Origin: an uncultured Methanosarcinales archaeon
GTDB lineage: Archaea > Nanobdellota > Nanobdellia > Woesearchaeales > GW2011-AR9
DNA length: 45,303 nucleotides
Direction of reading: 5' to 3'
Assembly (NCBI GenBank): GCA_964343575.1
Contig: CAYFJV010000001.1
Coordinates: forward strand, 155,402 to 200,704
The position numbers are program-made. Shown here in pieces: positions 39,001 to 42,000 of the stretch (its first letter is position 1; the number at the start of each line of letters is the position of its first letter).

Positions 39001-42000
39001 AACCAATCTTCTTTAGTAATTGAGTGAAAATAATCAGCTTCCTCTTTGAGAATTCTTGCAGTTGTCTTCTCCACAGCAGCAATCTCTACTCGTACCCCTT
39101 CTGCTTTAAGATGCGTTACAAGATCAACGTAATCAGAATCACCAGACATAATGATGATGGTATCAACCTTGGATGCTAACTGGGTTGCTTTGATGGAAAG
39201 CGGGATGTCTGCTGACTTATGACAAGGCACCACAGAACCATAATAACGCTCATGTAATCTGTCTGCTAGTTTGCTAGAAATATTCTTCCCTTCTCGAAAA
39301 TAGATGAGCCGGTTGAGTCCTCTTCCATTAAGCAACTTTGGAATAAGTGCGTCAAAATTGATCATTGCGCTTTCTGTTTTTGCTTCATCATGAATGCTTC
39401 GCTCAATATTGTTCCCATCACAAAGAATTGCTACTGTTTGATTAATGATTATTTTATCCATGTTATCACTTCTTTTTGTTCTTGTTAAACACAGTGCTCA
39501 TTTTAGCTTATTTAATTCTTTTTATTCCCCATATAGCAAAACCCAACTTTTAAGTACCCTTTTTCTTTTCTTTATTCCATGTTGAAGAGTAGGAAGGGAG
39601 CAATCAGCTTGGCTATGAGCACCATTGTAATGATTATCATTTCTTTGGTGATTTTAGCAAGTGGTATTATTCTTTTGAACAGTTGGCTCTCTGGTGCTGA
39701 AGAAATTAAAGCGCAACTTGATAGCAGGACCCAGGGAGAATTAGAAAGGTTACTCATCGATCAAGGGAAAAAAATAGCTTTACCCTTGCACACAGCCACA
39801 GTGCAGGGAGGAGATGGTCATGTCTTTGGTTTAGGAGTACTTAACATTGATGATGAAGCTTATGGTGAAAAATTTCAAACAGATATTACTTTGTCAAAGG
39901 TTCTTGACGGGCAAGATGAGGACATTACTCTTAGTGTTGATGAGCTAGAAGTACTCTCTTGGGTCCTTTATGAAAGCACTATTTTTCTTATTGAAGAGAA
40001 CCAACATTATAGTTTGCCAATTCTGGTAGATACCCCAGCAAGCGCCAAGAAGGGAACGTATATCTTTAATGTAAAGGTGACTTTTATTGAGAACCTTGCT
40101 GGTGAAACAGGGCAGTATGATAACACTAAGAAGTTTTATGTGACTGTCCAATAATTAAAGAAGCATCTCTTCTAGGAATTTTTTTGGATCTCTTGCACTA
40201 ACTACTGCATGTGCGAGTAAGATTCCAGAACAGCCTAAAAGCATTGCTTGACCCAAATCTTCCTTTTGATGAATTCCTGCACCGCAAAGGACTTTTGTTT
40301 TCTTGGTGATTTGTTTTACTGCCTCAACTGCTTTGAGAATAACATCAGGATCAGCTTGAGTTACAGAAATATCTCCCCCAATGAGTTCGGTTGGCTCATA
40401 AGCGATATAACTCGGTTTAAGCGTTGCGACTTTCTTAATCTCAGCAAGTGTTGAAGCGCAAACAATGGTAGTAAAACGTTTTTTATTACAGAAATTGACA
40501 ATTTCTTTGAGTTGGTTAAAAGGGAGTTTTTTCTCTGAATGATTCAGAAGCGTTCCTCCCACACCAATGTCTTTGAGCTCTTCAAGAGTAACATGTCCTG
40601 TATGTTTTCCAAAGCTTGGAAGATCAAGGTGCTGAGAGAAGACTTTAAGGTTCGTCTTTTCTCTTATTTCTTTTGTCGTGAGAAAAGAAGGACAAACCGC
40701 AACATCATAACCATTACGTTTTGCTTTGGCAATGTTTTTTGCAATGGTGAGGGCTTGCTTTCCAGCAGACTTCTTGTAGTTTTTGAAATTAATAACTATT
40801 AATGCTTTCATGTACAACACAACACAGGAATGAATGATTGACTTCCAATTGGGAGAGAAAAGGTTTATTTCTCCTCTTTTACTGAAAAGCTAACGTCAAT
40901 CGTGTCCTCATCTTTGCCCTTGCCTTTTTTAAATTTACCGATTAAGGTGAAGAAGTAGGCAAAAAGAAGAAGGAGGAGAATGAGCGGAATGAGAAAGAGA
41001 ATAATGTTAAAGAGGATAAGAAAAATAACAAGACCTAAAATGCTTACAAAGATGGCAGCTAACATCCCAGAAACACTTCTTTTTGATACCTTCACTCTCA
41101 TTTTCTAGCTCTCTTTTTTTTTAGTTGTTCTTAATTTTTTTTCTGCTTTTTTGGTCCTTGTCCTAAGAGGCGAAAGGCACCTGCCAGGCGACGCCTTATA
41201 GGTTCCTGTCCGCCATTCAATTTTCTTCCGCTGGTCGAAAATGGCTCCCAGGAAGATCACTCCTTGTTCTCGTTGTGGTCGCAATTGGGCAGCGGCGCTC
41301 TCTCTTAGGACAAAGTTGCTTTGTTTGTCTTCTTTTGATTGAAGAAGCCCAGTGCTATAAAAATACTCCCTAAAAGTAGCATAATCACTAAAATCTTTAC
41401 TGCCATCCAAAGGAAAAAGGATTCTGGATAGGTAGAGATAAGAAAAGAATCTAGAGGAAACTGCCAGTTTCCTTGGGGAAATAAAAGGTAGTGGAATGTT
41501 GCAAAACTTTTTTGAAAGCTTATTGCCACAGCTAAGAGCACGAGAAGAGGTAGGGTAATTGTTGTTAAACCTCCCCAGAAAAAGAGTTTACTGAGCATTG
41601 CTGGACTCTTTCTGTAGGAAGTAATGATAAGCGTTGAGAGCAAGAGAGTTGTCCAAAAAAGAATGTTCTGTACCTTAAGAAGTTCATGCACATCATACAT
41701 ATGAGAAATTTCTGCATCACTTGCTCCTGCTTCTTGTAGGGAGGTTTCGAAAGCTTGAGGATTGTTCAAAAAATCAATTCCTAACTGCTGTGTTTCTGTG
41801 AGGGGAGTTATGAGAAGTGCCAACTTGTAAGCTAAGATGATAAAAAGAATAGTTATGAAAACTAAAAAACAAAGACACAAAGGACCTTCTTTGTTCTTGG
41901 GTGTTCTCATTCTCAGAAAGACTTATTCTTAGCTTTAAATGGCTTTCTCAAGTGTAAAGAGGCAGAGATTGGCTGGGAAATAGTTAAATTATGGAGAATA

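Follow-up and report, generated by a model that had tools for sequence, protein, structure and literature searches.

A folded element with one-strand polarity in a woesearchaeal genome is the interior of an IS5-type MITE

What is the short folded sequence that recurs between the genes of this woesearchaeal archaeon, and why do nearly all of its copies lie on the same strand? One copy stands in the window, by which we mean the whole stretch of 45,303 nucleotides that was analysed. A preliminary description of the genome (here G000) had read the copies as a family of stand-alone non-coding RNA genes or as hairpin signals in single-stranded DNA, and had kept an old MITE-like mobile element as an option. 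We examined these readings.

Copies of the element and their strand

Seventeen dispersed copies had been listed, at C2:223893-224020, C1:548244-548372, C1:196574-196702, C2:331709-331833, C1:421634-421762, C2:97087-97214, C1:618044-618174, C2:367716-367841, C1:126747-126872, C2:434643-434768, C2:324213-324346, C2:57180-57356, C2:111428-111558, C1:419082-419213(-), C1:409373-409499, C1:578954-579135 and C1:372157-372276. All 17 were present at these positions, and all 17 were also recovered by a covariance model (R2), built from 36 aligned matches with the structure set by hand. In the R2 search of G000, 150 of 789 first-look candidates were scored. The window copy was matched with an E value of 8.5e-30, and three copies were added, at C2:485089-485213 (E 3e-7), C2:388338-388429 (E 7e-6) and C2:211807-211900 (E 6e-3), the last a weak match whose membership was judged by eye, giving a total of 20 full copies. 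The reported lack of an Rfam match held for the window copy; over the 20 copies Rfam produced a single overlapping match, to sR2, which scored 18.9 bits where the gathering threshold is 42. The copy at C2:485089-485213 lies directly upstream of a probable rRNA promoter, and the one at C2:331709-331833 begins 20 nt past tRNA-His.

The same-strand bias described for 16 of the 17 copies now extends to 19 of 20 (binomial p 4e-5). Contigs C1 (+), C4 (-) and C2 (+) are joined by 55-nt overlaps at their ends into a 1.17-Mb scaffold, so that strand can be compared over this whole length. Where C2 ends and C1 begins, the sequence looks like the two flanks of an rRNA operon, so that the scaffold probably closes into a circle. 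Genes are divided nearly 50:50 between the strands (268 plus and 246 minus on C1, 200 plus and 163 minus on C2). A further contig of 34.9 kb, C3, does not overlap the scaffold at its ends and carries 22 of 22 long ORFs on one strand; it is possibly a virus or another extrachromosomal piece.

Among 114 genomes of the family, 14 gave matches at E <= 0.02. Multiple copies were present in four besides G000 (17 in G074, 18 in G075, 14 in G077 and 20 in G078) and one copy in G001; the match in G079 looks real, and the other weak matches look like chance. An order-wide sample of 150 genomes, searched under stricter filters, gave single weak matches in six (E >= 2e-4). No account of the element or of its skew was found in a search of the literature by titles and the beginnings of abstracts.

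In the window, the element is flanked by two minus-strand genes that lie outside it: a gene for a 78-aa membrane protein (40865..41101), ahead of triosephosphate isomerase, and a gene of the Lit (lipoprotein transacylase) family (41305..41910; Pfam PF07314, E 5.5e-21). Beyond the latter, at 42248-42385 on the plus strand, stands an isolated fragment with strong similarity to region 4 of the bacterial sigma factor RpoD (E 4e-15), in an archaeal genome; the remainder of a sigma factor is absent alongside it.

Fold of the interior

The conserved interior of the window copy, as placed by the R2 match, the fold z score and the pair counts, spans 41171..41303 and folds on the minus strand. There it forms a nested rod. 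Helices P1a and P1b (41177-41185 with 41288-41298), separated by a 2-nt bulge, are followed by a small pyrimidine loop, helix P2 (41188-41192 with 41278-41282), a large asymmetric loop and helix P3 (41203-41208 with 41249-41254); between P3 and P5 (41220-41225 with 41237-41242), within 41171..41303, lie a 3x3 purine loop, P4 and a bulge of 3-5 nt. In the asymmetric loop an A-rich unpaired strand of 23 nt (41255..41277, minus) faces about 9 nt. Over 73 copies this strand keeps a fixed length (23.1 +/- 1.3 nt) and is 49% A, with a variable sequence. The most conserved unpaired bases of the interior are those of the purine loop, N-A opposite G-N-A, and the U/A runs of P5 are almost invariant. The 45 column pairs with the strongest covariation included no non-nested complementary pair that would indicate a pseudoknot.

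The claim that a multi-helix fold is conserved under selection was supported by pair counts, by compensated changes and by a model-fitted alignment. For the pair counts we took the best 73 of the 91 model matches, left out two rows of poor quality and three duplicates from a burst, and kept 24 of 34 pairs as reliably aligned. Covariation, also claimed before, was seen when 13 copies from G000 were aligned by plain MAFFT: 24 of 31 pairs had a two-sided change. In the model-fitted alignment of 90 rows, 89.1% of cells were paired, against 63.3% after shuffling and 41-48% when the partners were slid. When 40 copies were aligned across genera by plain MAFFT, no more than 10 consensus pairs emerged, with the inner helices out of register, and the inner register across genera therefore depends on the model. 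Stem differences within 25 independent pairs of paralogs comprised 55 compensated, 27 wobble-kept, 22 single-broken and five double-broken changes; unpaired columns in the same pairs had diverged by 33%. The 24 core pairs were 96% intact both in copies that bear transposon ends (nine) and in copies that have none (62).

The structure is also strand-specific, as would be the case for a non-coding RNA. The preliminary description had found G-U no commoner than A-C; on the window's minus strand we counted 73 G-U and 19 A-C, and 51 against 19 when the most biased pair was left out. In single-sequence folding, P3 formed on the folding strand in 33 of 68 copies and on the opposite strand in 20, and P4 in 32 and 10 of 68 respectively. 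The fold z score was below -2 in 44 of 68 copies; for the window copy alone it was -4.05 on the minus strand and -2.83 on the plus strand, and when folded as DNA the element was likewise significant (z -3.2, minus). Overall energy was equal on both strands, the folding strand being the better one in 34 of 68 copies when folded as DNA and in 35 when folded as RNA. Taken together, the results show that the interior has been selected to fold on one strand, and that this selection continued after the ends had decayed.

The fold was compared with known structures. None of the K-turn, H/ACA, C/D, bulge-helix-bulge or known ribozyme motifs, compared by eye, was stable across subfamilies. P1b has a likeness to Y RNA. 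This candidate was rejected: a Ro60/TROVE gene was found in 0 of 1 genome, the control giving matches in 2 of 14. A pattern scan of genome contigs gave at least 120 stretches, nearly all of the 80 listed coming from GC-rich bacteria and being taken as chance. A Shine-Dalgarno mimic in the A-rich strand was also considered; the 3' end of 16S rRNA was not found in the assembly.

A strand of fixed length and variable sequence between conserved helices, in an element with polarity relative to replication, could belong to a guide RNA that directs a recombinase or nuclease, like a bridge RNA or omegaRNA, or to a retro-element whose RNA is reverse-transcribed. The 23-nt strand showed no excess match to the genome (13.8 against 13.3 nt), and none to its own flanks (7.6 against 7.8); identical interiors lie in different targets in G078. 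IS110 was found in 0 of 5 genomes and TnpB in 0 of 8, no Y1 transposase was found in G000, and no reverse transcriptase in G000, G074, G077 or G078. This explanation is largely refuted, and we regard it as very improbable. The only reverse transcriptase found, in one of five genomes, is a 568-aa protein (L131, G075:C24) beside repeat-like motifs; by its features it looks like one of the diversity-generating type.

Transposon ends and insertion at promoter edges

Some copies had been credited with an extra terminal stem. The paired ends exist, but they are the terminal inverted repeat of a transposon and are accompanied by target duplications. The paralog at C1:548225-548388 has inverted ends of 16 bp and a perfect 9-bp target duplication; duplications with 8 of 9 identities flank two further copies in G000, and a perfect one flanks the copy L067 in G074. 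In the window copy both ends have decayed. The left inverted repeat (41153..41169, plus) and the right one (41302..41316, minus) each retain 9 of 12 identities to the intact end, against 6-7 in control windows. They are flanked by a decayed target duplication of 9 bp, read by eye, of which the left part (41144..41152) is identical in eight of nine positions to the right part (41317..41325); the automatic duplication scan did not call it. The Lit-family ORF ends at 41305, inside the right inverted repeat, from which this upstream gene takes its stop codon.

End remnants were recognised in seven of 18 copies in G000 (one borderline), in none of 18 control windows, and in two of 12 copies in G074. 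The automatic scan for ends plus duplications had a false rate of 24 in 426 on swapped flanks, and four of its 12 matches look like chance. No remnants were found in G075 (0 of 18) or G077 (0 of 6), nor IS5-type ends in G078 (0 of 16), so that in these three genomes the MITE origin rests on promoter spacing and homology. A recent burst has taken place in G078, where about 10 near-identical copies lie in a shell of 276 bp, most of them with 8-bp duplications, and one copy lies in a further shell; the 8-bp duplications belong to two other end types. The same interior is enclosed by at least three different end types.

The 12-mer GGCTCTGTAGAA was present in 77 of 113 family genomes, with 0-1 occurrences per genome for the reversed control. 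It forms the end of elements of 990 and 996 bp in relatives, which have perfect 9-bp duplications and encode a DDE transposase of the IS5 family (E 3.7e-40; the score of 138.2 bits falls just short of the cut-off, 140; Pfam DDE_Tnp_1). They are placed in the IS903 group. The ends of the copies at C1:409355 and L067 match those of these IS elements. The window copy's own end type has only the first eight bases in common with the GGCTCTGTAGAA type, and no IS matching it was found. No IS5-type transposase gene was found in the G000 assembly, and the sequence of the folded interior is absent from the full-length IS.

The GGCTCTGTAGAA-type end also bounds several other folded interiors, of 124-181 bp, which matched neither R2 nor Rfam. 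Across the family at least four such interior families (L342-L370, L307-L321) occur in the same IS5-type ends, with 24 copies in G124; those scanned had no Rfam match, and some carry, as judged by eye, the G-A loop module. A second repeat, a double hairpin of about 55 nt, is inserted in three copies of the element in G000 (C2:57241, C1:579006 and C1:419179), twice in the apical loop and once between P3 and P2, this last in the only inverted copy; it also stands once outside any copy (C1:388446).

Comparison with relatives revealed empty sites. In the congener G002 the Lit gene and the next gene adjoin directly, leaving the window site empty; G001 has unrelated DNA there. Conversely, at the sites of insertions in four relatives, only 42-120 bp separate the orthologous genes in G000. 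One position is common to G000 and G077 and one to G075, G077 and G078, but most are not common to genomes. In G000 and G078 the copies group with others of their own genome, and those of G074, G075 and G077 are intermixed; the nearest neighbour came from the same genome for 51 of 71 copies.

The position of copies relative to promoters was determined with a BRE-TATA matrix learned from G000. The promoters point away from the copies. Where a gene starts, outward promoters above 8 bits were present in 18 of 37 cases, and strong inward promoters (>8 bits), reading into the folding strand, in only three of 68. Other MITEs with the GGCTCTGTAGAA-type end have the start of the matrix 8 or 9 bp from the end in 37 of 51 cases, and exactly 8 in 33. 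End-bearing copies of the element have the same spacing of 8-9 bp, and six of nine burst copies in G078 a spacing of 7-8. Of the end-less copies that were scored, nine of 15 lay inside the corresponding window of 10 nt at the 5' side (p 5e-5 under a crude uniform null), and two of 17 at the 3' side. As end-less copies have kept the promoter spacing, they are most simply old insertions with decayed ends. The upstream gene points away in 37 of 68 copies. The spacing shows that the element lands upstream of outward-facing BRE-TATA promoters, at a distance of 8-9 bp from the promoter edge. At three places in G078 (C2:9249-9675, C22:14885-15491 and C44:5382-5842) different MITEs are stacked at one promoter-edge site with target copies in common, which suggests re-use of the site.

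With inverted repeats, target duplications, empty orthologous sites and many short non-coding copies, the element belongs to the IS-derived MITEs: it is the interior of a non-autonomous MITE of the IS5 family, about 160-170 bp long with its ends. A family of stand-alone RNA genes does not account for the inverted repeats, the 9-bp duplications, the promoter-edge spacing or the empty site in the congener, and the element lacks promoters of its own in the sense that only three of 68 copies have an inward one. The MITE option, which had been kept open, is the better one. What is unusual for a MITE is that its interior fold is under selection, and equally so in end-less copies.

That last feature invites another interpretation, namely that the host has a family of structured non-coding RNAs which arose independently of transposons, is sometimes picked up by MITE ends and owes its fixed orientation to selection acting, for instance, on head-on transcription. 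The structure is equally intact in the 62 end-less and nine end-bearing copies, at least three end types surround one interior, and two positions are common to genomes; in G078, 7 of 10 burst copies and 10 of 13 other copies lie on the C-rich strand, as if selection sharpened the bias. It is difficult to reconcile with the MITE spacing kept by end-less copies, with the clustering by genome, with the scarcity of common positions and the empty window site in G002, with the few inward promoters, or with the several unrelated folded interiors held by the same ends. We consider such a host family improbable.

Polarity, replication and the role of the fold

Polarity had been tied to the strand asymmetry of the chromosome. 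This part of the description stands for G000, G075 and G078, where orientation follows a skew of one sign, but not for G074 and G077. In G000, gene-corrected GC skew at four-fold sites was positive in 28 of 30 windows (plus strand G-rich) and gene-corrected AT skew negative in 29 of 30 (plus strand T-rich), so that the folding strand is the C/A-rich one. The sign of the skew stays the same all the way round the probable circle; its size is large along about 650 kb and close to zero along about 500 kb. No clear division into replichores emerged when gene orientation was cumulated. Copies on the C/A-rich strand numbered 13 of 18 in G075, 12 of 16 in G078, five of 13 in G074 and one of six in G077. 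With longer flanks, the counts in G078 were those given above for burst and other copies, and G074 was mixed.

Orientation in G000 is independent of the flanking genes. All four gene arrangements occur, and a cis-regulatory leader was rejected. Orientation is not set by the side of the promoter, since both sides are used (three end-bearing copies in G000 at the 5' side and two at the 3' side; 10 against six in a second interior family, and four against two in the G078 burst). Loss of the better-folding orientation was rejected as well: both strands fold with equal energy, which makes differential loss of hairpins unlikely.

Passages of PMC3971601 describe, for several IS families, an orientation bias that is tied to replication and to clamp binding. 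There, IS5a shows a bias on only 11% of chromosomes, in one direction or the other, and the remaining IS5 groups seldom show one.

Polarity that tracks base skew and not transcription could also arise if the fold acted in single-stranded DNA, on the nascent lagging strand, in a flap or in an excision intermediate, where it would pair the ends for transposase or serve as a polar replisome signal, the inverted orientation being counter-selected. The DNA fold is significant on the minus strand (z -3.2), the only inverted copy in G000 has an insertion of about 55 nt between P3 and P2, and the folded interiors between these ends all lie in a narrow range of lengths, 124-181 bp. By the usual rule, however, it is the G/T-rich strand that is exposed at the fork, and the folding strand is C/A-rich; this weakens the earlier hairpin reading. 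Both strands fold equally well (34 of 68 as DNA, 35 of 68 as RNA), a role in pairing the ends leaves retention of the fold in end-less copies unexplained, and a purine-rich loop of constant size is more characteristic of RNA. As an account of the whole element, this one appears unlikely, rather more so than the host RNA family.

The reading that we favour, at a probability of roughly 0.7, is fork-polarised transposition of an IS5-type MITE whose interior folds, probably as RNA. Transposase would be supplied in trans, none being left in the assembly. It would be guided to promoter-bound DNA, and genes would in this way be spared. The direction of the fork would set the preferred orientation at integration, and a chromosome replicated mostly in one direction would give the one-strand polarity.

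Within this reading, the fold most likely acts as RNA, on odds somewhat better than even, because the fork usually exposes the strand opposite to the favoured one, the wobbles go counter to the mutation bias of the region and the purine loops are conserved. With similar odds, the RNA would come from read-through or antisense transcription and would bind a protein through the G-A loop and the A-rich strand, which would explain why immobile copies are kept. Against a role as RNA, most copies have no promoter of their own. Action of the fold in single-stranded DNA is a lesser possibility. More generally, and tentatively, promoter-targeting IS5 MITEs might be vehicles for functional folded RNAs of about 130 nt with a G-A loop module that are retained after the ends decay, the polarity recording replication mainly in one direction.

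Like other IS5-family MITEs (NCBIfam NF033579), the element is short and gene-less, has inverted ends of 12-18 bp in common with a DDE IS of about 1 kb, makes 9-bp duplications at intergenic sites and has undergone lineage-specific bursts. It differs from them in an interior that is no IS remnant and is kept by compensatory change, in its fixed insertion at promoter edges and in its chromosome-wide polarity. Transcripts of the Correia, ERIC, BOX and QMITE elements are predicted to form stable stem-loops, their duplications decay with age, and some give rise to small RNAs or RNase sites (PMC10969869). The predicted stem-loops and the decay of duplications are shared by the element described here, whereas the covariation of five or six helices and the conserved non-canonical loops that outlast the ends are not; in the main text of PMC10969869 the stem-loops are described as predicted, and the word stem 'compensat' is absent. 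Literature listings showed no covarying, end-independent MITE interior and no such targeting in archaea.

Elements of the IS200/IS605 family are not known to have inverted ends or target duplications. They move by a Y1 single-strand transposase, whereas the present element has ends and duplications, and neither a Y1 nor a TnpB gene was found in G000; what it has in common with them and with other fork-polarised IS, in so far as passages of PMC3971601 describe these, is an orientation linked to the direction of replication.

A plain MITE would have no reason to keep a fold by compensatory change, least of all once its ends are lost. If the fold works as RNA, MITEs spread and seed functional RNAs in these archaea. 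Landing at a promoter edge with single-base precision suggests that the archaeal initiation complex guides the transposase; this can be tested, and it could be of use as a safe-harbour tool. With a skew of one sign and 19 of 20 copies aligned, the mode of replication of a DPANN archaeon becomes testable from read depth. A gene like Orc1/Cdc6, recognised by a motif match, lies at C2:93373-94575, near the rise in skew and 2.5 kb from one copy of the element.
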